Shown here in pieces: positions 1,542 to 34,254 of a stretch of DNA of 34,254 nucleotides. The DNA lies in the NCBI GenBank assembly GCA_026025795.1, contig JAPEUG010000172.1, positions 1 to 34,254 of the forward strand, given 5' to 3'. A program made the position numbers and the translations under genes. Each line of letters opens with the position of its first letter. Position 1 is the first letter of the stretch. The notes beneath the pieces are model-generated. The model saw only the letters and a list, made by a program, of their open reading frames with translations. It was not told where the DNA came from and searched no databases. The stretch is from Thelocarpon superellum. Taxonomy: Eukaryota.

Positions 1542-1887
1542 CTCTTTGCCCTACTTCCCTGCCCATGTGCATGTCCAGAAGAAGGGCAGGAAAATTGGCA
1601 TTTTGGAAGGTGTGGACGGCCAAGGCGTTTCTTCCTCTGGACGTCTCTTGTATCATATCGTATGGCAGTGCATTGTATTGTATTCGTACCGTGCGTACAA
1701 CCCGACGTGGCGCCCCTGGCCTATCATAGCACCTCAGAGAAGAGAGTTCTCGTCTCTCATCTGGTGCCCTAGAACCGACCCGTTCTGCTTCTCGTTTCCC
1801 CATCTCACCTCGCGTTCCATCTCTCCTCTGCTGTCATTGAACCCGCTCTCTTCCGCCACCGCTCATCCAGTCGCGACCTTGACGTAG

Positions 1888-2457
1888 CTAATCGGCGGCA
1901 GTAACGGCACGAGCTAAGGAAGCGTCATCAGCATATTGCCCTCCTTCTTCCTCTCCTCTCTCTCTCTCCCAATAGAGATAAAGACGGGGACTCACTGTAG
2001 ATGCTCAATTTGCTATGACCCACGACCTTCTTGATCTGGCCCTTCTCCTCCAGGTCCTGCAGCGCCTTGCGCGCCAACGAGCCGTTGATCTTCAATCGGT
2101 CGACCAGCGTGGCCACCGTAATCAGCCGATAGGATTGCACGTCTTTGTACAGTTTCTCCGAGGTTGCCTTATCCAGCACCACCGCGTGTTGCGCCTTGTC
2201 CTTGACTATGTTTCCATATCTGATTAGCTAACTGACTGGCTGACTGGAGACAATAGCGAAGAGAGAGAGATATAGAGGAACATAGAGATGGAGAAGAATA
2301 AGGGAGGAAAGATGAAAAGGCTCACCCTTTCCCTTGGACCACTTCTTCTTCTGCTTCTTGCCACCGGCGGCAGCAGCTGCGGGGGCCTACATCGAAGCAG
2401 GTAGAATCAGCCTTTGCTTCCAATCCCCAACCGCCTCCACAGAGAAAAACTCACCAT
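1888..2457 (-). CDS. RPS25: 40S ribosomal protein S25 (eS25); exons 2457-2455, 2386-2326, 2205-1996, 1913-1888; 99 aa
   Basis: Spliced product MAPAAAAGGKKQKKKWSKGKVKDKAQHAVVLDKATSEKLYKDVQSYRLITVATLVDRLKINGSLARKALQDLEEKGQIKKVVGHSKLSIYTRAVTAAD. All three introns are GTGAG...TAG. Confidence 0.98.
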
Positions 2458-2563
2458 GTTGAGACAATGTATGAAGACCGTCGACCTGAACTTCTCTGTC
2501 AGATCGAGGAACTGTCGGCGTCGTGGGGCTGTCGATATGTCGAATGTGCGTTTGCCGAGTCCT

Positions 2564-2796
2564 GTCACGTGTGCCTTGGGCTAGGGCTGCTGAGGATGAG
2601 TAAGGCTGAGTGGGGGAGGGTGACGAAGCCGCTTGGAGAGACGCGAGACACGAGCCGCGATTAGGGGGATCGTCACTTGCCCTCAACTTCACACTCTTCG
2701 ATGTTCATTATATACTATGTTCGGACATCCGCCTGGTGTGGTCAATCTGGTGTCGGTGTTGACACGTCATCTCTTCCAGGTCGGAAAGTGTGACTG
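2564..2796. promoter_or_regulatory. Candidate ribosomal-protein promoter motifs upstream of RPS25
   Basis: GTCACGTG E-box (2564-2571), CTAGGGCT (2581-2588, Tbf1/Homol-E-like) and an exact Homol-D box TGTGACTG (2789-2796). These are short motifs, so chance occurrence is possible. Confidence 0.4.
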
Positions 2797-3341
2797 TCCT
2801 AGGAATGAGTCGATTCACTCTGCCTACTCTATTGCCGTGCATTCGTCCCGTCTCCTCTACTTCGTCAGTGTGGAGATGGGCCGAGTGCATGGATCAAATG
2901 CTTGCTCTTCGAAGGACATTTCTGTGGAACCAGGGCGATGGGAATGCTTGCGTATTGGAGACGACTATGTTGGAGCTGATCCACGATATCGCTACTGGAG
3001 GAATCCGCGTTGCATAGGACATCGGGACATGGAGTGGCAGGGAGCGCCTCGAATGTACACACGATTCCACTTCTCAGTTTCTGACCATCAGTGAATAGAT
3101 GCTAGGGTACTTGGTGGCCCGGTCTTTTTCACACGCCCACTGCAGGCCTTCTACTTCCTAACCCACTTCCTATCGCACTTCTCATCCAGCTTTCTCATCT
3201 TCTTCCATCACCATTTCTCACACCGCGCGATTCCATAACAACAACATCATCGCCACAACGATCCACCCCCGCTCCATCCCAGCGCGCACCACACAGCACA
3301 TCACAACAAAGCAGCCATCACCATCCATCACCACTGCCAGG

Positions 3342-4706
3342 ATGACTCGTTGGCACCCACTGCTGATCACGATGCTCCTTGTCCTGCACTTCATGACCTT
3401 GGGGTCCAACAACCACAAAGAGCAACAAATCCGCGAGATACGCGCGTTCGCGGCCCAGCTGAATACGACCGTCACCCGTATGAACCAGCACCTGGCAATG
3501 ATGAACGTAACGGTGATCCAGATCGACAAGGCCATCGCGCAACTGCATTCGAGCATGGGCCTAGTCAACATGACCCTGTACGCCATGACGGAGGAACTGC
3601 GCTTAATCCGCATCGCCCTCACACTCTTCAACGACCTAAGCAGCGCCTTATACGCTCAAGAGTCCACGCCTGGCTCCGTGCCCATCATGAAGACCTGGCG
3701 TTCCTCTGACCCCTCCGCCCACGGCCTGTACTCGCGCGACCTCCCCGACCTCTCCGTTTATCGAGCGCAGATGGTGCCGGGCCCCGCGGGCCTAAATGAC
3801 CAATGGCGCTGCGGGAACTACTGCATCTGGCCCCTGCAAACGGGCTCTGGTAAGTGCATTCCCCTTCCCTCGCACGCCGTCCTTCGCAACACATGCTAAC
3901 GTCGCCCCCTGAACCCAGTAACGTGCCAGCTCAACGTCTCCCGCCTCCCCAACGAGCCCATCACACCCGGCAACGCCAACCTCCCCTTGTTCAACGATGC
4001 GTGTTTCTGCTCCGATTCCCGTGTCATGGAGTACCTCCCGCGCTGTCTCTGGTGTCTCTCGGCCTTCCAGCTCGCGCCCGCGACCGCGACCGTGCTCCGT
4101 GCAGCCTTTGACACCTGCACTGCCCCGCCGCAACGCTACGATGTCTGTCCCGACTCGTGCGGCCCGCTCGACCAGAAACTCACGTCCAAGATCACACCGT
4201 GCCTCGAGACTGCCGCTTCCGTGTCCGAGGTCAACCAGTGCGTCTGCGACAAGAGCACCTCCACCCTCGTCGACAACTGCCAGTGGTGTCTCCTGGGCTA
4301 TAACCGCACCGCTAGCGACGAGGTGGCCGGTCTGCTCGACACGTGTGATGGGGCTTTGGTCGACGACGTCTCCGCTTCTCCTTCGTCTGCGGCTGCGTCG
4401 GCCGGTTCCACTTCCATGGGCACCTCCACTTCCTCCAAGAGCAAAGGAAAAGGAAAAGGAAAAGGAAAAGGAAAAGGAAAAGGCAAGCGCTCCGTCATGC
4501 CCACGCCCACGCCCACGTCAGCCAGCACGACCACGAGCAACACCAAGGCCGGACCCGACGAACCCTCGTCCAGCAGCTCCTGGGACACCAACATTCGAAC
4601 CGTCAAGCGCGACGCCGGCGTCCGAGCCGTCTTTCTCGACCTCAACCTCCTGAAGGACGAGAAGGAAGAACGTAAGCGCGCCAAGCGCTCGGGATTCGTT
4701 CACTGA
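3342..4706 (+). CDS. Uncharacterised secreted Cys-rich protein with two 8-Cys (CFEM-like spacing) modules; exons 3342-3849, 3919-4706; 431 aa
   Basis: Signal-peptide-like start MTRWHPLLITMLLVLHFMTLGS. Intron GTAAGT(3850)...GCTAAC...CAG(3918) joins ORFs 3342-3899 and 3987-4706 in frame. Ser/Thr-rich tail. Confidence 0.75.
4443..4484 (+). repeat. (AAAGGA)7 coding hexamer repeat encoding (KG)n
   Basis: Direct reading; the last unit is AAAGGC. Confidence 0.9.
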
Positions 4707-5117
4707 ATCCGCCTTTCCCACCCCCCCTCCCCCCCCTTCTTCGTTCATCTGTTCATCGAATAGAGGGATGTTGCGGCGGTCGTCGTGTGGATGAAATGGA
4801 AATGTCGAGAGAGGACCGAGATTGATGCATTCTGGTGTGCTGGATTGGTACCGTCATGGTATGCTGCGAGGATGGATTGATGGTATGATGAGCGGGTGGG
4901 ATGATGAGACTGAGACCGGAAGGAGGAGAGTGGAGATGATGTGCCATTCCTGAACTTTGATACTGGACTCTTGACACTCCGAAGAAGTGGTAGGATACGA
5001 TGCAGACGATACGATAGTTAGATGACTCCATCAAATGGCAAGCGACCTGTGCTAAATCTCCAACGTCAACGCCCTGTCGCCTTTTCCTCCGTGCCCTGTC
5101 CCTCCGTGATATGTACA

Positions 5118-6849: not shown

Positions 6850-7310
6850 GTCCCTCGTGGTAAATGCATTGCAACGCCTTCTCTTGACGATGCCTATTGC
6901 CCTCCTCGGCGGGGCAGTAAACAATGTTCACCTCCATGCCGTTTTTGGTTTAGCGCGTTGAGGTTCAGCCTCCTGGCTCCTGGCCTCTGGCCCCCGTTAT
7001 CTCCCCGTAGAATCGTCTCTTATTCCTCAAGTCACCCTAGGGGCCAGGGAGCCGCGACGTTCGACGATAGACTTAGCTTCGAATTATCCTGCTTTGCGAA
7101 TTCGAGTAGACGCTAAGTTCGTCGTCGGACGTCGCAGCTCCTGGCGCCCGCCAACAGCTTGGACCGAATGATATGTTGGTGGGATCGTCTGCTCTTCCTT
7201 CAAGAGCTTTGGGGGCCAGGAGCCACGACGTTCGACGACGAACTTTGCATGAATCATCCAGGCCGGATTTTCCCAGCAAGGGAGAGTGGGTGCTACAATG
7301 GCTACACCGT

Positions 7311-8050
7311 TCATTCCACAAAACCTTCCTCTCGAGACTCTCCGCTCCTTCCACCACGCTTCAACACCACTCTGACGTCTTCGATCCGCATGCCACGGTC
7401 CACACCCTTGCACATGTCCACCACCGTAAGACACGCGCCCATCACCGCTGTCATTGCTTCCATCTCCACTCCTGTCGGGCCGTAGCACTCAACCCTTGCC
7501 GTAGCTTGTACGCCCCCATTCTCGAGCTTCTTGTCTTTGCGTCCATCGCCCCCTGCGCAGTCGATTCGCCCTGCCTCTGTTACCTTCTCATCCACTAGCT
7601 CAACGGCGAGGTCCACGCCCGTCAGAGCCAGGGGGTGACAGAGGGGAATCAGCTCTGCCGTACGTTTGGCAGCCATGATGCCAGCGATACGCGCCGTCGC
7701 TAGCACGTCGCCTTTTTTGACCAGCGAGGCTGGGATGAGGCGGAGAGGATGTTTGTTCGAGAATCGCACAACCCCTCGAGCGATGGCGAGTCGGTTACTG
7801 GCTGGCTTTTCTGTGATCCGCACCATGTGCGCTGTTCCATCGGGTTGAAGGTGCGTGAGTACAGGACGTGCCTCCGATGCAGGATCATCTTTTGCTCGTG
7901 TCGCCATGGTCGAGAACCGTTGCGCCGATTGGGAGGACAGGGGCGGAGTAGGTAATTGTTGACTGTGTGGCCACGCAAAAGGTGTCCCAGTTGCTGACCG
8001 TGCTGAAACTCCTCTCACTACCCTCCCGTGCTGACCAGGGACTTTGTCAT
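7311..8050 (-). CDS. cnxABC: cPMP synthase (MoaC/MOCS1B) domain, last exon of a 699-aa MoaA-MoaC fusion isoform
   Basis: LTHLQPDGTAHMV, KKGDVLATARIAGIMAAKRTAELIPLCHPL, GPTGVEMEAMTA, VVDMCKGVDRGMRI and KRGGRSG. It is in frame with MoaA when the donor at 8117 is used. Confidence 0.92.
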
Positions 8051-9538
8051 CTGCAGATGCATCGTCAGCCAAAGTTCCCATCTCGGCACTCGTCAACTAA
8101 AGCATAAACGTACCCACCAATTAAGATCATGGGCCGATTTTTCATATTCTCCAACTGGCCAATGCCTGCGTGCTTTGCTCGTTTTCGCTTGACGGCCATG
8201 CCGATGACTTCGAGTAGCTCTTGCTCCGAGTCTGAGGAGGGAACCGGTTGGGGAGACGTTGTTGCATCGTTGATACGGGCCGCCTCGGTCCTTTGGATGA
8301 GATCCAGGGCGGCCTGGTCGATCGGTAGACCCCCATTACTCTTCCTCAAGAGCTCTCGAAGGGAAACTTCGGCATCTCCGAATAAACACACCTTAAGATT
8401 GCCGTCGGCGGTGATGCGCAATCGGTTGCAGGTGCCGCAGAAGTTATGCGTCATGCTTGTGATGAAGCCCACTCTCCCGACAAACCCGGGAACCTGGTAG
8501 GTTTTGCTGGTGTCATTGGCATGGTCCTGGACTTTTCTCATAGACGGGTGCTTGGTCTTGATGACGTTCATTATCTCCTCGTAGCTGAACATCTTCTTCT
8601 GGCTCCACTTGTTGCCGTCAAAGGGCATGTATTCGATGAAACGTACTTCCACATCCTTCTCTTTGGTAAGCTCGACGAACGGCAATATCTCTCGCTCGTT
8701 CATCCCCCGCATCACCACACAGTTGATTTTGAATTTGATGTTGGCCCCAAGTCGTTTTCGCTCGAGCACATCCTCGATGGATCTCATGACCATGTCGAAC
8801 CCCATTCGCCGCGTCATGAGCTGGAACTGAAAAGGATCGAGCGTGTCGAGGCTCAGGTTGATCCCCGTCAGACCAGCGGCAATCAAGGTGTCGAGCTTGC
8901 GATGGAGCGAGATGCCATTCGTCGTGATACACAGCTCTTGCAGGCCCTGTGCGCGGAGGGAGCCAATAGATTCGACCAGGGGAAGGAAGTCCCGTCGTAC
9001 CGTCGGTTCGCCCCCGGTCAGTCGAATCTTCGTGACACCCTGTGAGACAAACAGCGCCGAGAGCGCAACAATCTCGGCGTTGGTCAAGATATGGTCCGGC
9101 GGGGACAAGGGGACGCCCTCTGCAGCATCGTCAGCCTTTCCTAAGCAGTCCACCGAGGCCGTGGTCCAAGACCAAGATACCTTCAGGCATACAGTAAAGA
9201 CATCGCAGGTTGCACCTCTCTGTGATGCTTATCCGGAGATAATCATGCTGCCGGTTGTACGTATCGGTCAGGAAGCGTGAGAAGGGTTTAGCGTGCTTGA
9301 GAGCATCGCGCCTGTCTGGGGAGCGTAGAAGGGCGGCCTTGGGAGTAGTAGGGAGGATCTCAGTTGCGAGCTCAGCGCTGACATAGGCGTGAGGCCCATC
9401 ATGGGCTGCACCCGCAGCACTTGCTATCCCTCGAACTGACATTCCACTTCGGCATCGTGGGACATCAAACGGAGTGCGGGTGCGTGCCGGTCGGATGCAC
9501 GCCATAGATCGCCCGGGCCACCACCGTGATGCACACAT
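8047..9538 (-). CDS. cnxABC: GTP 3',8-cyclase (MoaA/MOCS1A, radical SAM) isoform ending Gly-Gly-stop; exons 9538-9181, 9119-8114, 8050-8047; 455 aa
   Basis: [21 protein letters not shown] (CxxxCxxC), [41 protein letters not shown] and C-terminal NRPMILIGG. Arg-rich N-terminus resembles a mitochondrial presequence. Confidence 0.92.
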
Positions 9539-12929: not shown

Positions 12930-14480
12930 CGCCGAGTTGAGCCGAGAGCTGGGAGCTGAGAACGACCAGTACGAGAAGTCCAGCTCAGGCATGTCGACCA
13001 GATCAGACTCCTGCACGTATGGTAGAACATTGCTGAGGACCTCTCGCTGTCGCGATCACGATTGAGACGGTTACATATGTCAATGTTGGAATACCTTCCG
13101 TTCAGCTGCAGCGCACCCGTAACCCATAGCTTTTCGTACACCCGGTGCAACTCCAGTGCAACTGGGGGGGGCTGACGCGAGAGCAAGCCAGAAAATTACG
13201 GACAGCGGATGTCGGATCTCTGTCGGCGCCGTGCGAAGCGAGGTCAGTTGATTATGGCGGAGGCGACTTGCTGCGGCGGGGATGCGCAAGATGCGCAAAA
13301 GTTGAGGCGTTCGTGGCGCATGATATGACGTAGCCGGCAACATGCGAACGAGGGCGAAGCCAGTACTACACTGGCTTCAGTTACCTGCCAGGTACAGGAG
13401 AGACGTCGGCCAATGCGCACCGCACCGCGTTCCCTGTGGTAACTAGCTGCCAAGATCCGCAGCATTATTAAGCGACTCCAAGCCCTTTTCAGATCGACCG
13501 TGCTGGGTCCGGAAGTACCACGTCGGAGATGCCGGTCACGATGAGCCACGAACGCCGCGAACTCCTCGTCCCTGGCAAGAGTACAATTTTGGGTCTAAGG
13601 GCTTTCGACGAACGATCATCCTTAGCACTATGAATAACAAAATGCTCTGCTTGCCACTGGAAGCAACTTGTACTCGGCGACGATTGGCGCTCCATCCAAA
13701 CTGACTGACGCCGTCGGGCTGGGAGGGCTTCTACGAGACCTGTTCGTAAGTTATGGGACCAAAAATGGCCAAGGGGAAGATGGAATGGAAACTTGGATCA
13801 GCCGCACCAGAGGATCCGTCGGCGACTAGCGACGCTGATTGGTCGTATGCCGGATCTGCACCGCGGTCCACTCTGCGTGTTGCTCTGTCATACTCGTACT
13901 TGGGCTGCGAGTAATGACCCCGACTCGGGCAGGTGCACCCCGCCAAGTAGAGGAGCGGTGCCTAGGCCACGCGGCCGGCAACTCCGGCACAGCCCCAGAG
14001 GACTGGCGGCTTCCTCCCTGTATCGGCTCCGCCTCCCTGAGACAAGGACGGTTTCATTCCCCGACCATGCCACCGACTTCAACGTGCACCACCACTTTTC
14101 ACCCTTCTCCAACCCTTTCTCCACTTCCATCTTCAACATCGCCGCTCCTCTCCCCCCGTATCGGACTTTGGGTGGCTCCCTTGCGTACCAACTTCAAGCT
14201 GCAGCTCATCGTCCCACGATCCTCGTTGGCCTGACTTCCGCAGCCGCTGACACGCTTTTTGGGCGGGCCACATCGCTAGACGGGCGCGGCAAGTCCGGGA
14301 TCCGACGGGCTTACGCAACACCCCATCCCGACTCCAGGCAGCAATCTGGGACCTCAGGCACTCAATACCGTTAACCTGGAAGTGTTTGCCTCGCCGCGTG
14401 CTCGTCTTCCGGAAATCACATCTCACGGTCGGCCATTGAACACGGTCGCTCGATCGCGTCTCCAGGCATCCACTTCGACC

Positions 14481-17611: not shown

Positions 17612-20600
17612 ATGCGGTCCTGGGTGCAGTTCCTCACCACCCCCACCGCCGACACACCCGGCACCACGCTTCTCTTGCATTTCGACAACAAGCGCTATCT
17701 CATCGGCAACCTTGCCGAGGGTACACAGCGTGCCAGCATCCAGCGCGGTGCCAAGCTCATCAAAGTTTCCGACATCCTGCTGACGGGTCGGGTGGAATGG
17801 TCCAATATCGGGGGCCTATTGGGCATGGTCTTGACCCTGGCCGACGCCACTTCCGCCGCTGCTACCACTTTGGCCGGCATTGCGGAGAGCAAGGCAGGAA
17901 GACGCCAAAAGACGGGAGACACACCCGGGGGTAGGGAGGACCCGCCCCTGGTTCTGAAAGGTCGGGACACGAGACCGAAGCTGCGGGTACATGGTGGGGA
18001 GAACTTGAGCCACATGTTGGCAAGCGCAAGGCGGTTTGTCTTTCGCACAGGCATGCCAGTACATGTACACGAACATTCGGCCGGGACAGACGGGCCGCAC
18101 AACGGTTCAGTCCCACCATCATCCAGTCTGGGTTCGAATCGGGCAGATCCTTCGTCGCCAAGCCGGGGACACGGAGATCCGAGTGACGATGGACATTCCC
18201 CGACCTGGAACGATGAGAATATCAAAGTATGGGCGTTGCCCATCAGACCTTCGCGTCCCGACGGCGGCAGTCCAGCCGCTGACGAAGCCGTTCGCTCCAG
18301 GAAAAGGAGTTTTGACGAGTTTAAAGGACCCGCTGTGCGCGCGCAGGATGCGTCTCTCGCGGCCGTCGACCGCGATCGCCAGATCCGGAAGGCCGTCGTC
18401 TCGGAGATGTTTGACTCAGCGTGGCGACTCGATGCGCTGCTCGAGATGCCACTGGACCAAGTCCAGCTACCGGCTGCGCTATTCATTCGCAATCCGGAAA
18501 GCGGGCGCATCGAGAAGTACACCGGTCCTTTACCGCCGGCCGGAGGCAACGCCGCGGCTGATGCAGCATCCTGGATGAAGACCAAGGTCTTGGTACGCAA
18601 ACCATGGCCCGGGGCATTGATCGAGTCGCTACCACCAACTCGACCTTCGTCCGTTTCCATGTCATACATCATCAAGAACCATCCACAACGGGGAAAGTTC
18701 GTGCCGGAGAAAGCCATCCGGCTTGGGGTGGAGAAAGGACCCAAGTTTGCGGAGCTCACCCGTGGCAAGAACGTCACAGTCGCTAATGGGACGGTCGTCA
18801 CCCCCAATATGGTCTTGACGCCGGGTAAGGAGGGCGGAGGGGTGGTCGTGGTCGATTTACCGTCCGTCGACTACGTGGATGATCTGATCAGCCGGGAGGA
18901 GTGGAAGCTTCCCTCAATCATGAATGGTGTGGAAGCCGTCATCTGGCTGCTCGGGCCCGGCGTTGGGCTGGACGGTCGACTACGCGCCTTCTTCCAGGCC
19001 TGCTCCAGCATGAAGCATATTGTATCCTCGGCCGATTACTGCCCCAATTACCTTGCCCTCGACTCCGCGGCTGCTGCGGCCATTCGACTACATCAGATCG
19101 ATCCCATCCACTTTCCCGTACCGGTTCATGACAACACCACCTTGCCGCAACCCATCACACCACCCGCCCTCGCTTCGCCGAGTGTGCCGGCTGGAGGAGA
19201 TGGCCTTTTCGTGCCGGCGCAGCGGGGCCTACTCGTCCAGCTGGAGCCGACGGTTGAGGTGCAGGACCGAACCGTCCAACCACATCTCAACACGGCCAAG
19301 GTCTGGAAGGATACGCCGGCCGATGTTCTGCACCTCGCGCGGAAGGCCAAGGAAGCCTTGGCTGCGGGGGAGCTCCGCCAACGTCTCGATCACGAACAAC
19401 GCACATTACCGGGTCAGGATGCAGAGATTGTGACACTCGGCACCGGCTCGGCCTTGCCCTCAAAATATCGCAACGTCTCTGCCACCCTCCTCCGGGTTCC
19501 TGGCCTGGGTTCTTATCTTTTCGACTGCGGTGAGAATACTCTAGGTCAGCTACGGAGGGTCTTCAATCCGACCGAATTGGCTGAGGTGTTGGGCGATCTC
19601 AAGGCCATCTGGATCAGTCATCTGCATGCCGACCATCACCTGGGTACCGTCTCCGTCATCAAGGCATGGCATCAACACGTGTGGGGCGGCCCCTCTCCTA
19701 CTACACCCAGTGGCGACGCGGAAGGCGATCTGGATGTCACGCAGGTGTTAGAGAACGACCGACGGCTCTTCATCCTCTCGGATGACGGCATGATCCACTG
19801 GCTCGAGGAATACTCATCGATGGAGGATTTCGGTTACGACAAACTAGTACCGTTATCGGTCCAGAGCGCCCGACGCAACAATGGATTCTCCACCCGGATG
19901 ACGTGGAAGGGAGTTCACGTAGGATTTGATACCGCCAACGGCGCGCTGTGAGTGGGCGCGAGCGCCTTGGCGTGATGTCCCCATATCTGACTTGCTTCGT
20001 TTTAGCAACCGAGCCACGGCAGCGGCGATGGGGGTGTCAAACATTCAAGCGGTGGATGTCAGCCACTGCCACGGCGCGATGGCGGTCTCCCTTACCTTCC
20101 CGACTGGATTCAAATTTTCCTACAGCGGCGACTGTCGACCGTCCAACGCATTTGCGCAGATTGGCAAGGGCTCGACCGTACTGGTTCACGAAGCGACCTT
20201 TGACGATGAGTTGCAGGGCGACGCCGTCGCCAAGAAGCACTCGACCACGAGCGAGGCCCTTGGCGTCGGAATCGCTATGGGCGCTCGTCGCGTGCTCTTG
20301 ACGCATTTCTCCCAGCGATACCAGAAGATTCCCATCATGGACGCAGTCGACGGCGCCGAGCCGTCCTTCGAGGATGTGCCAGAGGACGAACAGGCGGATG
20401 GGGTCGACCTCGGCATCGCCACGCTGATCCCAAACCGGAACGACATCGCCGCCGATCGCGTGGCCGACGTGGGCCCCAGCCGGGAGCCGCGTCAAGGAAG
20501 CGAGGAGCGAGTGGTAAAAGTGAAAAACTCCACCAAGGCCGCTGCCGACATGAAGATCGGCGTCGCCTTTGACTACATGCGGGTCAAAGTGGGAGAGATC

Positions 20601-20744
20601 AGCCACTTGGAACAGTTTACTCCCGCCCTCTTGAAGTTGTTCGACGTGGCCGACGTGGAGGAGAAAGAGGCCGAGAAGAAGTCGAGCGACCGGCCCAACA
20701 GCCCAGCGGATAAGGCCAAACCCGGCAAGAAGACGAAGAAGTGA
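17612..20744 (+). CDS. TRZ1: Long-form tRNA 3'-processing RNase Z (Trz1/ELAC2); exons 17612-19947, 20006-20744; 1024 aa from the first in-frame ATG
   Basis: TPTADTPGT..LHFDNKRYLIGNLAEGTQR, RGKF..KAIRLGV..GP, LGTGSALPSKYRNVS, LFDCGENTLGQL, ISHLHADHHLG, YSGDCRP, HEATF and LTHFSQRY. Confidence 0.96.
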
Positions 20745-24995: not shown

Positions 24996-25024
24996 TAGTA
25001 GTAGTAGTGGTAGTAGTAGTAGTA
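24996..25024 (+). repeat. (TAG)n microsatellite, left flank of the transposon
   Basis: tagtagtagtagtggtagtagtagtagta. It resumes as tagtagtagta at 34079-34089. Confidence 0.9.
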
Positions 25025-25730
25025 CCTAGTCGCACCTCTGTGGTTGGCGAACACGGTGTTGATACTGTACCAAGTAGCGGTGGATATGAAGCTAGTATTG
25101 ATACCATATTTGCAGTACATTTGTGGTGTTTCATCATCTAAGAGGGTCGAGACACCCAAGGTATCAAAATAGTTAAGGTGTTGAGAAAGACCTAGTGTCA
25201 ATATGGTGTTGATATTGAAACTGAATTCCCCTGTCTGGTAGGAGTGATAAGGGCTCGAATTTGAGACTGTTTTCAACACATGATGCTGTCTCCAATACCA
25301 CAATACCAGCTTGACTGTGACAGCTGATACTGTCTCAAGAATAAGCCAGACCCAATCTTGTATCTACATTATCCTACAGTGGTCTGTGATACCTGCTTTG
25401 CATTGATACTGGGTTGACACTAGTTCTCTTTTGATAGAGGTGTGATGCTGTATTGATCTAGTATAACACTGTTTTGATATGTTATCTCAATGGCACAGGT
25501 ATGACCTGTAGGTCTTGGGGAGTATCACTCTATTCATCTGCAACATGCATTCCTAATTCAGCATTCAACATGATAGATGAATGTATATCTAAGTAATCAA
25601 AGCAACATGTAAACTGCAAATAGATATAGACTAGATAGCCACTAGCAATGCTCCTGCTTCCTGCAAACTACAGTGTCAATGCCAGTTGTGACTAACCTAG
25701 AGATCTCATGCCCACATGCATACTCTCCAT

Positions 25731-26733
25731 TCATTCCCTGGCCTGGGTCTGCTCACTCTGAGCCTCCTCCTCATCCTCCTTGCCCACCTCCTGATCACCC
25801 TCTTCATCACCCTCTTTGTCGCTGTCCTCCAGGGTAAGCGTGGGGTCGATATTGTCACTATTGACACTATTATCATCACCATTGTTGTAAGTATTTGGAA
25901 ACTGGTGCTTCTTCAGAGGGGGTTTAGTCCCAACAGTGAAGAGTCAGAGGGAGGTGATGGCATGTGCCTTCCTCTTCAGAGTGAGGCTCTTCTCTAGTAA
26001 TCTGACAAAGTTGTCAAGATCACAATCCACAAAGTCCTCAAAGGAACCCATCCTCCAGAAGTAGTGTGAGAGATTGTCCTGGTTGTGTGGGTGCTCAGCT
26101 TGCTTGTACTTGTCAGCAGCCCAATCAAGATGCAGCTTGATCTGTGAGGCATAGTTGGAGAACAGGTCTAATGTGTACATGGTTAGTCAATCACTAGTAT
26201 TGCTACACAGGGAGACAGTGCACTCTTGGTGTAGAATCACGCATATTTGTTCAACATGTCAATGTCAAGAAACCTGTCAATGAAGGGAAACACCCAGATG
26301 AGATTCATAGAAGTGTATTGCTTCTCAAAATATCCAGCCAGTTGCTTCATGTTGTCACAAGCCACAATCATGTTCTTGTTGTTCTTCAGAGAGATGGTGA
26401 TTGAGTTTTTGACAATCTCCTAGAGTTCACAGATTAGCTTGGCCATTCAAAGGTGTGTCCAGGACATTAACATACTGTCATGCCCTCTAGAGATCATGCC
26501 TTCTAGTTCTTAAAATTGGACTGAAGCTTCTTCTTCCCCTCCTGATAAAGGTATCTGTGGGGATCAAGTGCTTCCCTAAATGCCACCTTCAGCAGGGACT
26601 CCTTGTCGACTTGGTGAAAGTAGTGGAAGAACCAGAAACAAGTGTGGTATTCCAGCTTCTTCAAGAGGAGATCATGCACCTGGGCTTGGCGCTCAGCCTC
26701 TGCATCCTCCTTGTCACCTTCTGTGGCTGCCAT
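25731..26733 (-). pseudogene. Transposon accessory gene relic of unknown function, two introns (26475-26420, 26223-26168), acidic C-terminus; 5' end uncertain
   Basis: ORF pieces 26503-26733 and 25944-26180 join in one frame through introns with GCTAAT/ACTAAC branch sites and TAG acceptors, interrupted only by in-frame stops. It ends ...EDSDKEGDEEGDQEVGKEDEEEAQSEQTQARE*. Confidence 0.65.
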
Positions 26734-27759
26734 AGCTCATCCTGGTACTGCACTGAATACAGTCCTAGGCACTCTTGCAGGTGGCTTGTTGACAACACAG
26801 CTCAGCTCTTGGATGTCTAGGGAGGATGCGCTGTTCTGAGATAGTAGGATGCAATGTTGAGACAATGTTGGGATGGTTTGCCCCCCTTTTCTAGCAGTTT
26901 TTGAGTGGGAGGAAGAGGAGGACAGAGAGTTTTGAATGTTTGAAGACTGCTGATTGAAAAAGTGTGGATTTTGAGGAAGTGGGGGCTGAGGAGGGTTGTA
27001 ATCACCCTTGGAGTTGTGGATCGAATCCTGTGTTGGATTGAGTGTCTATGTCAGTTATGTGGTTAGCATCTGCTTTAGCCAGAATCTACATTGTTCAAAA
27101 AGAATATATTGACCTCTTGTGACATTCCTGGAATTGACTGGCCTGCTGAACAGGTGGTAAGAGTAGCAATGGTCGCTTCTGACACATGACCAAGGCTCTG
27201 GGAGAGGCTGATCCTCCCTTGTTCCTGACCTGGCTTTACCCTCTTCCCATGCATGGTGTCTCAACACAGAGAGCAGAGACCAAAGGTCAAGGAGGAGTAG
27301 ATAGAAACGCTCTCCCCAGAATTGGACAATCCCAAAAGGAATACTGTCTTGGTGAGGTGGTGGTATTGTACATAGAATGTATGGTGGGGTGCTGATTGTA
27401 GTGATTATTGGTGTGAAGTTGCTAACCAATCCCTGGAGACTGCGAATCATCAACACTATAGTCAGAGCCTGTGATAATGCTGATCTAGCACAGTAGACAC
27501 AATCTATACTTTGCATGTGCATACACTACATCTGCCTGTCCTCTGGATTTCCTCATGTGCATCCTGAAAATCCTGGCATACATCAAATCCCTGCAAGTGT
27601 ACCTATCTGACATATCTACTGCATCTATGTCAAATCTAGCATTTGCACAATGCTGCAGCTTCCTTGGCACTCTATCTGTATCATGCACTAGTCTTGATCT
27701 ATGTTTCTCTCCTGCTACTGATATGTGTAGTTTGCAAACATTGCTAACATCTGAATAGG

Positions 27760-30700
27760 CACAGTGACTTTGGTCTAGCAAGAGCAATCTGCATCTGTCC
27801 CAGAACACCCCAACTTCTATTTTCGGCCTTCTGAGATTTTCACTTGAATTCACAACACACATCGCTGTGTAGCTCCTGCTGATACAGATTCCTGATGCTG
27901 CAACAGAAGAAGCAGGCGCACCCTGCTGCAATAAGAGAGGCCAACATATTGAACAATGCACAACTCTCCCACCTTTCTGAGCTCTATGCCTAGGAACACC
28001 CCACCTCTCCTCCAGTCCCTCTACCTGCACCTGTGCTTGTTAAGGATACATTTGCAGATGTGCTCCTAGGCTTGAATGTGAACAACACTACCAACAACAT
28101 CCTTGCTGTGTTCTAGGATGTGAATGATGGAGGCAATAATCTCAATGATGTGGAGGAGGATGAAGTACCTAAAGACCATTTGGAACTAGACCCACCTCTT
28201 TCAAGTACCACTCCCAACCCTCTGGATGTGTTGGGTGGTATCCTAGTACAAGACTTCATAACTACAACCTTTGAATCTGAAGTGGTTGATAATGAGGATG
28301 ATGATACCTATAACAATCCCAGCATACTACCCCCCCTTCAGCATTTGTCCAAAGGGCTAGATGCTAATGATGGAGAGGAGGTACCCTATCTCTGTTTATC
28401 TACATCAATGCAAGGGTTCATCTTCTCCCTTGGTCTTTGGTGCAAGACAACACAGCTCTCACACTAGAATTACACTTTGCTTCTTGAAGTACTTGACTTG
28501 GTTTCCAACATTGGCTAGCTTAGGATTCTCTCCTGGTTGCTTGCAACACTGAAACACTAGACCCAGCAGCAACTCCCACTCCTCAAGATGAGGAGAAAGC
28601 AGATTCCTCTCACACTATTGAAGTTACCTACCCAGAGTGCCCTAGAGAAACAGTTGGCACTGACACTATCTGTTAGATGGTTGTACTTCTTTGATCCCCT
28701 CCATCTCTTCCAGACCATCCTCTCCTCTAATGCATATGTGTCACAACTTCATGTTAGGATGGTGCATTTTGTTGACCACCCCTCTGAGCTCTATCATTCC
28801 ATGGCATAGGGCTCATCCATCTGCACATGTTCAGGCAACTTTGCGCATTACAGCACAGACAAGTCACCAATCTTCCCCTCTAATGTTGTCTAGTTCTAGT
28901 GCACTATATCTGGATGCCAATGTTAGAAAAGAGTAGGCCAACCACACACTGGTTGTGTTATCTGTGTTGCACACAACTTTTGTTCCAGCACACACATTCT
29001 AGGCACTATCCTCATCCACTTGCAGCAGCTTGTGTCAGGTGAGACACTCTCTTCATTTTTCGAGACTCTCCCCACTCCAATTACTACACAAGACAGGCAG
29101 GAGGAGATGCTCCTTGGTGAGGATCTAGTGCACAGGATAGAAGAGAAGAATGTGCTAGAGCAGGTACCTAATGTATACTTCGATTACAGCACAAAGGATG
29201 GGTTAGAGACTAGCCAAAATCCAGAGGCGCAAGCAGCAACTGTCATTGTCCAGAAGATCTACAACCACAAGCTTCACAAGATCTGGGACCTTAGTCTCTC
29301 TACCCCCCTTAGGGTGGAACTCGAGATAGCCACCTTTGGCTGCCAGTATCTACTTGACACATGTGTGGTTGACAATGTGCTCACAATGCCTTACATGGCC
29401 TTTGTTGATGGCTTTGGCCTGTACAGAAACATGTACCACAGTTTGATGGGATTCTACATCATCCCTGCTAGTCTGACTGTCTACAAAAGATCCTAGAGGG
29501 CCAATATCATCCCACTCACCCTTGGACTACACAGAAGCAACTTCGAAGACATTGTGTCAGGACTATACTGTCTTCGAGATCTGGACAAAGGAGTAAAGAT
29601 GACTATTAATAGCATGGAGAAAACTGTGTGTGCATTTGTGATAGCGTTTATTAGGGACATGCTACAACAGCAATCCAATTCCAGGTTCCTCTAGCAGCAG
29701 GTGACACAAGGATGTCAGTTGTGCCTAGTAAACAAGAAGTCTCACAGAGACTTGTCATACAACACCCAGTTGCAGAGACAATATCACCATGCCACTATTG
29801 CCCTACACCAGCAAGGAGAGTTGCTTTGCACCAAAGGTAAGAAGAAGCAATTCTACCAGCTCTAGAGTATGCAAGAGATGCTGAGTCCTCTCATGTTGAT
29901 CTCTCCTGCTCTTGATATCATCCAGACACAACTGTCAGATCCAGCCCACTTGGAATTTGCTAGCCTCACAAAGCGATCCCAAGAGCTGCTTTTCACAGCC
30001 ATTCTTACAGCAGCAGCACAGGACATGTATACACTAGAATTGTGTCACTTTCCTTTCCCTCCTAGGTGGAATCGCCTCCAGTCCCTGAAGCTTCATCTAC
30101 ACTGCTGGCAAATGCAGGAGTGTGCACAGGCATCAATCATCACCCCAATGCTTCTGTGATGCTAGCTCAAGGAGAAACATGTCTAGAAAGACTACACAGC
30201 AGCATTACAACATGTCTTTGAACTTGACCAGCTTCAAACCAATGTTGTTGACACAATATCCTAAGTCTTTGCTACCATGGGTTGGAGTAACACAGTCATT
30301 TTAGCCTATCAAATGTCGAATTGGGACCAAACTCAACTCTACCACATTTTGAGCCATGGGCGAGATGGATTCCAGAAGCTGCATGAGGTCACTGCTCTTG
30401 CAACCACCCCTCAATTCTCATCCAACTGCACATTGCAAAGAAGCAGCACAGCCATGTTTTCATCACAGACATTGCATCATTCAAGCCTGTTGAAACAAGC
30501 TCTTCCTGCAGCAGACACCATTTCAGATTACAGGGATGATATCCCTAACAACATGTCTGTTTTTAGCAATGAGAGTACAGCACAGGAGGGGAGAATGTCA
30601 GGCTTGGGCAATGCAGATTTCCAGAAGTACTAGAAGATCATCACTCTCCCAAACATCCATATTGGCCTTTATTATACCAATGTTGCAGACAAGTATGTGA

Positions 30701-31668
30701 CTCCAAATAACTGCAACACACTTAGTGGCAAAGACAAGCATTAGTATCCCTTACCTCCACAGGTAGAATATCAAGATCTGGTGCTAATGTCCTCCTAGGG
30801 GTTTCAAATCAGCCATTGTGCATTTGAATTACCACAATGTGGAAAGGTTCCTGCTTGGAAGAGAAAACTTCTAGCAGACTCTCTGCTTCAGACTACTCAG
30901 GTCCTTCAATCAGACCAAACCCACATTTGCAGAGGCCCTTTGCACTATCTACAAACATTGCCTATCTCTCCTCAACAGTGTCCATCCAAGCACTAACACC
31001 ATCGCTGCTGAGAAGGATGATTTGTGTCTACCTTCACTAGACAATTCTACACATATCAACATCTGTCTTTTCTACTGCATCTATCACAAGTATGTTCTTG
31101 AAGTCCTTTGATTGCCTCTAAGGCTAGACAATCTCAATGTTGGAGACAACTTCCTTGCAATGCTACAAGAGGTGTTCAATGTAGACTACCAGATGCCTCA
31201 CATTCTACATTTCAGACATGGCCAAGTGCAATAGTGCTCGAAGCTGGGGTTCACAAACTTGTCTGCCCTCCCCCTCCTCTTCTCCTTCCTCCTAGTCTGC
31301 ATCTTGCTGACTACTGTAGAACTTTGAGACAGTGTGTCATTTTCTGCAGCAGCGACTTCCTCCAAACCTGCAAGTCCCTAATCTGTTGTGTCAACCACTT
31401 CTTTGCCTATGAGCATCTGCAAGGGATTTAGTGCACATTTGCCCTTGTCACAGAGGTGGAGACAAGGGAGCAGGAGCAGGATGGGGTTTTGAATATCCCA
31501 ATCCAAAGGATTGGGATGAGACAAAGAGTGGTTGGCGTCCTAGGGCTAGGGTTTGAGCATCTCTACATAGTACCAATTGAGAGAGTTGTCTATGACCATT
31601 AGATTAGATTACAGAGAGGTGGCAAGAGTAAGCTTCTCCACTGTGAATGGGACATACAGTTTCTCTAG
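27760..31668 (+). pseudogene. Large DDE transposase pseudogene (CMC/EnSpm-like), many in-frame stops; intron 30744-30798; 5' end approximate
   Basis: Collinear fragments WLYFFDP, PYMAFVDGFGLYRNMYHSLMGFY, RANIIPLTLG, LDKG..VCAFVIAFIRDMLQQQSNS..GCQLC, SDPAHLEFASL, LPNIHIGLYY, LSGKDKH/GFK and terminal LLHCEWDIQFL*. The order matches the D..D..C-x2-C..DxxH..E layout of CMC transposases. Confidence 0.78.
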
Positions 31669-31699
31669 ACTTGTTTTTGAAAGCCAATACAAGTAGCTG

Positions 31700-33610
31700 C
31701 AAATGTTGTACATGTGTCCAGCTAGTCAGATTGTGATGGATCCATCCCTTGTGTGTCTCCTTGCTAGCACTGTGAATTCGCATCCATTGGACACAACTCT
31801 AACCTAATCCAAGTGTTGCCCTAATGCCAGTCCCAATGGTGGGACATATTACTAATCAACAGTGTTGCTACCACCAGATTTTAACCTAATCAACTATCAC
31901 AGATATCAATGTTCACAACTCCACACCACACAGTTGTGGTCCCTTGGTTCAGAGATGGAATCCCACCCCAACAATCAACAATGAGTTCATCGACTTGCCA
32001 AGCTCCTGTTTATCACACCATGCTAATGTCTCTCTGTCACTGCATTGTCTTCAGTGACATTAGAGCACCCTGCAAATGCTCCCATTTGCTTCTTTCCACT
32101 TGTCCTGCCACTCTGTTAACATCTTTGAACATGACTCTACAAGCCAACCTTTGGTAGACTCCTACAGCATCCCTGCACTTGCACTCAGTGTCTCATTATT
32201 ATGAGAATATCTCTGTCCCATTCTGCATCTCCAAACCACAGAACCTGCAATTCCAAACATTTCCACTAGTTGCAAACATTGCCAATACCTGGTGGGGCTT
32301 TATTGCAGCAAGTGTGTGTGCATCATCACCAGAGCACAGTCACTGCGATTTTAGCCAATTTTGAGTGTTTCAAAGGGGGTACCCTACAAAATTGATCAAG
32401 TTTTGAATGGTTCTCTAATCCCCACACAATTTGTTAGTAAATTGAAGAGTGCAATTAATCAGGTGACATAACTGACATGTATACCCACTATACCCTGACC
32501 AATGCATCACAACTACACTAAACTAGGAATCTGTACTAACTGAGGAGTATCAATGCACAGCAGCTGATATTCCACCCTCCCCCCAGCCTGGTCGCACCTC
32601 CCCCACACACCCTACTGCCCTTCGCCACTCCTCCCCAGCCTGTTGATGCTGCTTACAATGTTGTGTAATGTTTTGCACCATGTGCTGGCATTGTGAAACA
32701 CATGGGCAATAGAGACACATGCTGTGTTTCTCCCTGCGCATATGTGTGCTGGTCGCAATGCTAATGATGTTTTCTAGTACTCCTACACTAGGAATTATCA
32801 GTTGTATTGGCCCTGCTGCCCTATGTGCCCAAGTGGCTAGTTGTGTAGTATGTTTCTCTAACAAACAGAGTATCATCTGGCATTGCTATTCACAGGAATC
32901 ATACTCATCCCTAAAGGTCTATTGAATGATGCTGATGGTGAGCAGGATATTGCTAGCATGATTCCAACCTGTCACCATTTATAAAGAGGGGATAATGCAA
33001 ATCAGTCCAGTGAGAACCCCTATTATATTCATCTACACATATGCTTATCAGTATCATCTTCAATAGGAATTTATGCTTACATACATACTCTCCCCTGTAA
33101 TCCTAGGGCAAATTCTGTTGCACCCTTTGCACAATTCCGACCACCACTTTCCCACCATGCCACAGCAGACCTTTCCCAATCACAACTGCTCTTCCTTCCT
33201 ACCTCCTCATACTGAAATGGGGTGTTTGCGAATGTAGAGTTGTGTTGTGAATTCCCAAGCATGTTTTGCTGATGTTGGACAGACACATCCCCCCTCCCAT
33301 GATACATCTGTGCAACATTGTGTGTGACATACTATGTTGAGTTTCGCTGGCAAACATCCTGCACCCCCATTTCTGGTGCTACCATTTGGGGCACATCACA
33401 CTGTAACTGTTGGGGAGAGTTTGGGATCCATGGGGATGCCAAGGAGCAGGTGCAGTGTTGAGTGAGCAGTGCAGTGTTGCACAGTGTCAGAGATAGATCC
33501 TCAGTGTTAGGAATCAAGATTCTGGTTTGTTCAAGTACATCTCTTGAGAAGAGCACAGCATCGCTATTAAAACCATGTCTGATGTGAGCCTGCATTGTCA
33601 CAGAGCCCAT
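31700..33610 (-). pseudogene. Possible third, heavily decayed gene within the transposon; boundaries approximate
   Basis: Chain of minus-strand ORF fragments (33332-33610, 33077-33307, 32550-32876) and a GTATGT(33088)...TAG(33020) intron-like segment. No recognisable motif, and the frame is ambiguous. Confidence 0.3.
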
Positions 33611-34089
33611 TCAGAATGGAAACAGTATTGAGCTCAACACCCTTCCAGGTTTTGAAGAAGTCAGTTGCTAATACAATCTCCATCTTGAGGCCAAGCACAT
33701 AGGTATAGGAGTCAATGCCAGATTGGTGTGGATACTAAAGAACAGTTGTAAAATTGATACTGGCTGATACTACATCAGTTTGGACTCTGTAACACCAGGT
33801 CAAGAGTAATACCAAATAAAACAACTTCATCATTGATACTGTTTCTAGTAGTTGAGAGCAACACAGTTTCATTTTTGATACTTTGAACCTAGGTCGAGGC
33901 TGACACAGAACATTGAGGTCACAAATTTTCAATACCAACTCAACAACACTTAGGCTTCTAATTCGAATTGGTTCTAAGCACAAGTTGATCTAGATATACA
34001 GGATAACACCCTGGTTGCTAAATACAGTGTTGACACAGTATCAATACTGTGTTCACCAAACATACTGGTGCAACTAGGTAGTAGTAGTA

Positions 34090-34254
34090 ACAGTATTCAC
34101 CTACTTTCCGCCCACACCTACTTTCCACCCACTTTTCTCTCAACCCTACCTCCACAATCAGCTACAACTCCACCACCACAGCTTCTACTTATCAATCCTC
34201 AAAGATGTAAGTAGACAAGACCTTAAGCTATCATTTGAACCTAGGTTGATGATG
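34090..34254. mobile_element. Probable terminus of a second transposon (Tc1/mariner-pogo-like), truncated by the window
   Basis: Begins (A)CAGT right after TA of the microsatellite. Tandem 17-mers CACCTACTTTCC(G/A)CCCA at 34098-34114 and 34115-34131. CpG-poor sequence continues. Confidence 0.4.

Follow-up and report, generated by a model that had tools for sequence, protein, structure and literature searches.

What is the 9-kb block between inverted repeats on contig JAPEUG010000172.1 of the fungus Thelocarpon superellum, and does it belong to a described group of DNA transposons? An earlier note, made from the letters of the 34,254-nucleotide stretch alone (the whole of which is called the window here), had proposed a complete CMC/EnSpm-like element with non-CACTA termini, an intron-containing transposase, a divergent accessory gene and possibly a third gene. 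We read positions 25025..34078 (9,054 bp), with a probability of about 0.82, as a full-length but now inactive member of a two-gene family of cut-and-paste transposons that belongs to the CMCT clade (EnSpm/CACTA, Mirage, Chapaev, Transib, Plavaka and ESTA) and to a lineage of filamentous ascomycetes. The element itself, its CMCT-type transposase, the second gene and the flanking TA are upheld, the third gene and a proposed ancestral CCCAG or CCCGG end are not, and the position given for a cysteine-rich segment is corrected.

Transposase gene and modeled fold

The transposase gene comprises three exons and two GT..AG introns over a span of 3.77 kb (roughly 3.9 kb in the earlier note), and a relative, P0017, matches over residues 74-1197 in three collinear pieces along the three exons. 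Among 35 aligned relatives, D502, D585, E930, C604, C607 and H682 are invariant and H628 is present in 31. As such, the relatives carry the D, D, E, C2C and His motifs described for CMCT transposases (Kojima 2025, PMC12730594), compared here without the exact H(3-4)H spacing. The window copy retains all the invariant catalytic, Cys and His residues except the final Glu, whose position (30730) is occupied by Lys, and, to judge from its sequence, it cannot yield an active enzyme.

Profile searches place the protein only in part. Pfam searches with 10 raw open reading frame (ORF) fragments gave nothing real, PDB sequence searches with transposase profiles gave no significant match, and Transposase_21 is matched by none of the 35 relatives. 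The Plavaka family PF18759 is matched by 12 of the 35 at E ≤ 0.1 (best 6.7e-7) and, among six relatives scanned singly, by one above the cut-off (29.3 versus 26.3 bits); these matches span just positions ~195-318 of the 325 in the profile, which is the common stretch of second Asp, C2C and His.

An AlphaFold model was made of P0017, not of the window copy, with a predicted local distance difference test (pLDDT) score of 79.5 and low confidence over the first ~160 residues. It matches RAG1 over 461 residues (Z 13.1, rmsd 5.0), ProtoRAG with Z 10.8 and Transib with Z 10.7, and Foldseek returns a RAG1/Transib-type match at E 3e-6. On this model, the transposase has a RAG1/Transib-type fold, as expected of the CMCT clade, with an inserted BAH domain: residues ~289-470 of P0017 match the BAH domains of ORC1, ASI1, EBS, Polybromo and DIM-2 (Z 9-10, rmsd 3.3-4.2; 123-141 residues for matches with Z about 10 and rmsd 3.4-4.0). 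Motifs and modeled fold together bear out the CMC/EnSpm-like assignment of the earlier note.

Inside the BAH domain lies a C-x4-C-x-C...H cluster, the residues of which are conserved, one by one, in 31, 28, 27 and 34 of the 35 relatives. It is probably the cysteine-rich segment that had been placed at the N terminus; the cluster is real but starts ~335 residues into the protein. In the family alignment, aromatic residues do not consistently occupy what we take to be the methyl-lysine cage of BAH domains of the EBS type, so a role as a reader of modified histones does not emerge from it; that the insert would touch nucleosomes or another protein seems to us an even chance. Chromatin readers found fused to transposons are mainly PHD and chromo domains, and the accessible part of the study concerned mentions no BAH fusion (Grau-Bove, 10.1101/2021.11.30.470311). 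A C-terminal beta domain was considered as a second BAH copy, which profile comparison does not support (probability 8%).

Termini and insertion site

The left and right terminal inverted repeats (TIRs) form the longest inverted repeat of the window; 36 of their 44 positions are identical, and the remainder are 5 transitions and 3 transversions. The observed/expected ratio of CpG is 1.03 in the left 25 kb and 0.11 inside the element, and the drop is abrupt where the left TIR begins. Together, the repeat and this drop show that the proposed TIR-bounded element of ~9 kb is real.

The ends are best understood from relatives. Of 90 related loci confirmed in a metagenome scan the best 80 were kept, and 26 of these, picked by length, were scanned on both sides of the transposase for inverted repeats, without assuming a target-site duplication. 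A flanking inverted repeat of this kind was found in seven, representing six independent elements and one allele, 4.9-9.4 kb long (L007, beginning CCTTA; L043, CCATG; L046, CTGTA; L063 and its allele L070, CTATA; L071, CCATA; L081, CAATA). Each of the six independent elements reads TA|C at both ends (12 of 12), with a variable second base (CC, CT or CA) and neither CAC nor CCC among them, and single ends obtained by comparing loci at different sites have the TA in five of six cases (L014, L047, L048, L055 and L064). L051 has a 19-bp repeat without TA and was left uncounted; the other 18 loci gave nothing convincing, many of them being cut short. The non-CACTA character of the termini, CCTAG in the window, is thus shared by the family.

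As the element sits inside a (TAG)n microsatellite, the length of the duplication is ambiguous in the window, where 2, 5, 8 or 11 bp fit equally. The proposed 2-bp TA duplication is therefore supported by the ends of the relatives and not by the window alone. Removal of the element with one TA restores the (TAG)n register, and removal of both TAs breaks it.

The idea that the ancestral end was CCCAG or CCCGG fares less well, as no related end begins CCC and L007 begins CCTTAG. Of the window's first 12 bases, 11 match the TIR of the beetle (Tribolium) TRC element at a one-base offset (PMC1636069). This match and the L007 end favor CCTAG over CCCAG or CCCGG, and the sequence suggests that CCTAG is the true terminal sequence of the element. 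It is conceivable that CCCGG was the ancestral end all the same, because CCGG is gone from the element (0 per kb inside versus 5.6 outside) and CTAG is five-fold enriched there (7.5 versus 1.4 per kb).

A TTGATAC-type motif recurs, in either orientation, in the two subterminal regions. This 7-mer, picked after counting, occurs eight times in 1 kb of both ends versus once in the middle 8 kb.

Accessory gene

Clustering of the ORFs beside the relatives' transposases reveals a conserved upstream gene, ORF2, which is mostly divergent and lies on the same strand as the transposase in L007 and in one separate branch. In the window, ORF2 has four exons with GT..AG sites and is divergent from the transposase. 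When the whole window, in 348 chunks, is searched with a profile of nine such ORFs, the top matches are two consecutive, collinear exons of this gene (E 0.008 and 0.01), and a third exon matches L022 (E 5e-4). The spliced model was built with its junctions set in the light of the relatives. It scores 29.4 bits, the best of 1,000 shuffles reaching 8.5, and its codon score of +0.073 is higher than that of all 48 null windows (non-coding mean -0.122). The profile of the relatives and the shuffle test thus confirm the divergent accessory gene that had been proposed.

ORF2 stands beside the transposase in 23 of the 26 loci with at least 2 kb upstream, of which 12 are training rows of the profile and 11 are not in it, and many are near-duplicates. 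It is kept there in both deep branches of the family tree, a tree with weak deep nodes in which the window is not placed. The two ORF2 subfamilies align weakly (HHalign probability 15%, E 0.002).

The protein database holds two close relatives of ORF2 only, and ORF2 has no usable Atlas match and belongs to no Pfam family. The core modeled for an intact relative (pLDDT 72) is all-helical and not a dioxygenase fold; of 48,161 chains compared with the model, only homeo-Prospero reaches Z ≥ 8 (Z 8.9, rmsd 3.4, 133 of 139 residues), and the highest probability in the Foldseek list belongs to PROX1 (0.28). The modeled likeness to homeo-Prospero is a weak lead. In En/Spm, TnpA binds subterminal repeats (PMC2613891), and, because the window's subterminal motif recurs in both orientations as it does in En/Spm ends, it can be hypothesized by analogy that ORF2 is a TnpA-like DNA-binding helper that recognizes these repeats, a role toward which we lean slightly.

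A third, convergent gene is rejected for now. The reading that could represent it (Table 1) has no homologue in the 80 related loci and no Pfam match, and its codon score of -0.132 resembles the non-coding mean in a test that ORF2 passes, although this test may miss a captured gene of different composition. The gap between transposase and right TIR is 2,410 bases in the window versus 415-840 in five relatives.

Table 1. Coordinates of the element's features and of its insertion site in the window
Feature	Position	Strand	Remarks
(TAG)n microsatellite, insertion target, left part	24996..25024	+	resumes at 34079-34089
Left TA (target-site duplication)	25023..25024		2-bp length taken from relatives
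Left TIR	25025..25068	+	44 bp, begins CCTAG
Left subterminal region	25054..25420		repeated TTGATAC-type motif, both orientations
ORF2	25731..27254	-	exons 27254-27114, 27045-26476, 26419-26224, 26167-25731; 447 aa; 5 internal stops
DDE transposase	27895..31668	+	exons 27895-30743, 30799-31260, 31320-31668; 1,219 aa; 23 in-frame stops, no frameshift
BAH-fold domain (predicted)	28756..29310	+	approximate, mapped from P0017 residues ~289-470; precedes first catalytic strand
C-x4-C-x-C...H cluster	28900-28947	+	inside BAH domain, conserved
Catalytic core	29407..30732	+	Asp 29407, Asp 29656, C-x2-C 29713/29722, His 29785, D-x2-H 29938-29949
Third reading	32550..33431	-	two exons, 33431-33081 and 33032-32550; unsupported as a gene
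Right subterminal region	33620..34050		same TTGATAC-type repeated motif as left
Right TIR	34035..34078	-	44 bp
Right TA (target-site duplication)	34079..34080		TA flank at right end

Distribution of the family

With the largest open transposase fragment as query, 14 relatives were found among 689 candidates, and the transposase profile reaches 2,832 clusters at E ≤ 0.001, 150 of which were listed, and 795 at 1e-30, out of 1.84 billion representatives. Nine of the ten relatives looked up have an organism name; in searches that reach close relatives only, the named ones are all Pezizomycotina, from several classes, and nearly all are annotated "hypothetical protein." None of 162 candidate stretches in viral contigs was confirmed. 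Intact members are common, and the family occurs widely among filamentous fungi, although catalogues cover it poorly. In the relatives, TIRs and internal genes travel together, and the Pezizomycotina names and the frequency of ORF2 agree with the earlier proposal of an ascomycete lineage with a second gene of its own.

As summarized in 2017, Repbase listed CMC elements for Basidiomycota and Mucorales only, and a broader distribution was reported from Pfam domains (Muszewska 2017, PMC5751038); Plavaka is missing from public repeat databases (PMC11075540), and red algae have Plavaka elements with accessory genes (10.1101/2025.02.11.637652). In the literature covered on Plavaka, Lanisha, ascomycete EnSpm/CACTA elements and fungal transposases with a BAH domain, which leaves aside most subscription papers and Repbase Reports, no description of the family was found. 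As hundreds of protein clusters are labeled "hypothetical" and fall mostly under Pfam cut-offs, fungal repeat annotation would overlook such elements, and they would be counted as host genes.

Several observations concern individual relatives. A long-branch subfamily (L046, L047, L051, L055, L059, L061, L063, L070 and L081) has a tandem ORF2 and related C(T/A)RTA-CAAAAA TIRs, with support of 1.0 for the seven of those nine loci placed in the tree. The L007 element has an exact 40-bp direct repeat past the TA on both sides (7125-7164 and 13704-13743), the transposase of L006 is broken by ~3.3 kb (1796-5105), and in L055 the transposase lies between two sets of long tandem arrays of inverted orientation (4051-4415 and 8715-9320). 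Many Xylariales have a full-length, apparently intact transposase on large contigs (for example, P0067, P0088, P0172, P0176, P0178 and P0179). Judged by sequence, these intact genes and the loci without TIRs and ORF2, such as L010 and L011, may point to domestication.

Placement and rival explanations

Kojima 2025 (PMC12730594) defined the CMCT clade, gave the ends of Plavaka and introduced the name ESTA for those EnSpm-like elements of rusts that duplicate TA; the comparison here covers 20 of the 88 ESTA places in its supplement and, for the transposase, the published description of ESTA. In addition to the motifs and modeled fold, the TIRs and a duplication within the 2-5 bp of the clade are found here. 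The CA..TG ends that CMCT elements have "in most cases," a usual and not a universal feature (PMC12730594), are not, as the window has CC, five of the six two-ended relatives have CC or CT, and one has CA. The features of EnSpm/CACTA in the strict sense, namely CAC(TA) ends, a 3-bp duplication and Transposase_21, are all absent. Plant En/Spm resembles the family in having two products (TnpA and TnpD), subterminal repeats in both orientations and a CMCT transposase, and differs in its CACTA ends, 3-bp duplication and single spliced transcript where the family has two separate, mostly divergent genes. Animal TRC/CACTA-like elements (SmTRC1, Tribolium, Aedes; PMC1636069) have a 2-bp duplication, and the Tribolium TIR resembles the window's start, yet they begin CCC and carry Transposase_21. 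With RAG1 and Transib the modeled core fold is common over about 460 and 400 residues, respectively, at ~10-12% identity, and the BAH insert, the C-terminal beta domain and the TA duplication set the family apart. Transib makes a 5-bp target duplication.

Because TA duplications are already described for ESTA, an EnSpm-like lineage (PMC12730594), the TA duplication itself is less novel, and the most distinctive features of the family are the BAH insert and the orphan partner gene. Within the CMCT (EnSpm-like) clade, the family probably represents an ascomycete variant that is still undescribed, and we consider it rather probable that the lineage is distinct from both ESTA and Plavaka. It could be argued that the element is instead an ascomycete branch of ESTA whose terminal bases have drifted, since both share the TA duplication, a similar size (about 7-14 kb among the ESTA entries listed) and a DDE transposase that is RAG1-like and bears the C(2)C and His motifs, one relative (L081) has a CA end, and a Basidiomycota-rich cluster with a score of 0.93 is among the nearest Atlas matches, a lead only. 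However, all 16 ESTA 5' ends among the listed entries begin CAC and come from rusts, whereas the ends here are CC, CT or CA and never CAC, and every named match, within the reach of the searches, is from Pezizomycotina; we regard a place within ESTA as unlikely, if conceivable. The family has no TET/JBP gene and a conserved ORF2, which ESTA may or may not share. A Plavaka element is a far less credible identity. CMCT motifs, 2-bp duplications in some Plavaka families and the weak matches to PF18759 from second Asp to His speak for it, but these matches are partial and mostly below cut-off, and PlavakaA ends in TGT..ACA and PlavakaB in CATCA..TGATG, with varied 2-3 bp duplications and no fixed TA (PMC12730594), ends that are not found here. 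Just as improbable, in our view, is that TA is part of the TIR without any duplication, or that the duplication here is 5, 8 or 11 bp. The window would accommodate these longer values and, as TA is palindromic, inverted homology always takes it in; yet in a comparison of L046 with L061 homology begins at C with AG outside it in L061, the (TAG)n register is restored with one TA, and longer duplications are not visible in the relatives' flanks, read by eye.

For ORF2, it could be speculated that it is an anti-silencing or passenger gene and not a helper of transposition. Its absence from the two-ended L043, its occurrence in either orientation elsewhere and the known anti-silencing cargo (TET/JBP) of fungal DNA transposons (PMC12730594) are in keeping with such a role, which we nevertheless find doubtful, as the modeled ORF2 core is all-helical with no dioxygenase fold and ORF2 adjoins the transposase in both deep branches, though the link between its subfamilies is weak.

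Under the preferred reading of a two-gene CMCT transposon, the active element would have encoded a RAG1/Transib-fold DDE transposase that bound the two C-starting TIRs, excised the element and reinserted it at TA with duplication of those two bases, with ORF2 helping as a DNA-binding partner at the subterminal repeats. The cut-and-paste chemistry would follow RAG1 and Transib by analogy; motifs, TIRs and TA flanks are observed directly and the fold in the model. The window copy would then have landed in the (TAG)n microsatellite and been inactivated there by hypermutation of C to T in CpG and CpA, either methylation-linked or akin to repeat-induced point mutation.

Several findings weigh against this reading. 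The subterminal repeats have only 2-3 copies in relatives, and in the host genome neither an empty site for the element nor a second insertion of the family with different flanks was seen. A TIR pair of this kind is lacking from 19 of the 26 loci searched, including L010, L011, L054, L074 and L083 with at least 7.9 kb on both sides, and many loci are near-duplicates out of few samples. The right flank of allele L070 is CA, and the sixth single end, L061, has AG as its left flank, with homology beginning exactly at the C. ORF2 is missing from L010, L011, L027 and the short L043, which has both TIRs, so ORF2 may be dispensable; its homeo-Prospero match falls short of the Z of about 13 below which the tool calls for caution with helical folds, and Foldseek with the ORF2 relative model returned nothing at E ≤ 0.001.

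A bolder reading can be put forward only tentatively: a separate, unnamed CMCT lineage of superfamily level across Pezizomycotina, characterized by a zinc-decorated BAH module and a dedicated homeo-Prospero-like partner, which would steer insertion to TA sites in particular chromatin and in which single intact genes, such as some of those in Xylariales, were possibly domesticated. Were this so, fungi would have a two-component system comparable to RAG1/RAG2 or TnpD/TnpA. A BAH insert that reads chromatin would provide a DNA-transposon parallel to chromodomain-guided long terminal repeat elements. The family also adds a RAG1 relative whose intact members can be assayed.

Decay of the copy and genomic setting

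The host sequence up to 25,024 has about 58% GC. In the host assembly (19.2 Mb, 797 contigs), other copies were found neither by DNA nor by TIR pattern nor by protein, searches that give lower bounds and were made without a separate one for ORF2. Contigs from sequencing run X1, which is not independent because it probably derives from the source sample, contain a second version of much of the element at lower depth, with the left flank free of differences. This version differs from the window at 306 positions (299 transitions and 7 transversions), and in 226 of the transitions it reads C or G against T or A in the window. Among the 40 listed differences, several fall on stop codons of the window, and 38 of the 39 transitions are in CpG or CpA context. 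The second version may be a second copy, another strain or another organism. Signatures of CpG plus CpA mutation are known in ascomycete transposons (PMC4352252). The window copy is debris, inactive and with no evident effect on the host.

The decay shows a preference for the 5' base, with ACG and CCG nearly absent on either strand and the leftover CpGs in [TG]CG[AC]; the gain of TpA is highest after C (CTAG 5-fold) and nil in GTAC. This context is unlike the TCG context given for Microbotryum (PMC4352252). Three C5-methyltransferase loci are present in the host. One of them, by its motifs, is presumably RID-like, and another is an orthologue of DIM-2, which matches entry 9bap and entry 9baq, titled as a DIM2-HP1 complex, at E 1e-178. 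Such a set is in keeping with a filamentous ascomycete as host.

Upstream of the element, window positions 17612-20744 hold a gene for tRNase Z (Trz1; E 6e-56 to yeast ribonuclease Z), and convergent neighbors on the plus and minus strands occupy 7311-9228, with a short inverted repeat at 7112-7248. From their translations, we take this pair to be moaC-like (+) and moaA-like (-) molybdenum cofactor genes, and other ordinary host genes upstream of the element are presumably cytochrome b5-like, WD40, zinc alcohol dehydrogenase-like and bZIP.

The right flank was considered as a retroelement tail, which is rejected; a TA-flanked, unrelated element with ACAGT ends begins there instead, 11 bases past the right TIR and in the same microsatellite (window 34090-34254). 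It matches at least 14 other contigs of assembly G000, many at contig ends, and an 815-bp copy with both TIRs is present in locus L094. We assume it to be a Tc1/mariner-type miniature inverted-repeat transposable element, which it resembles.

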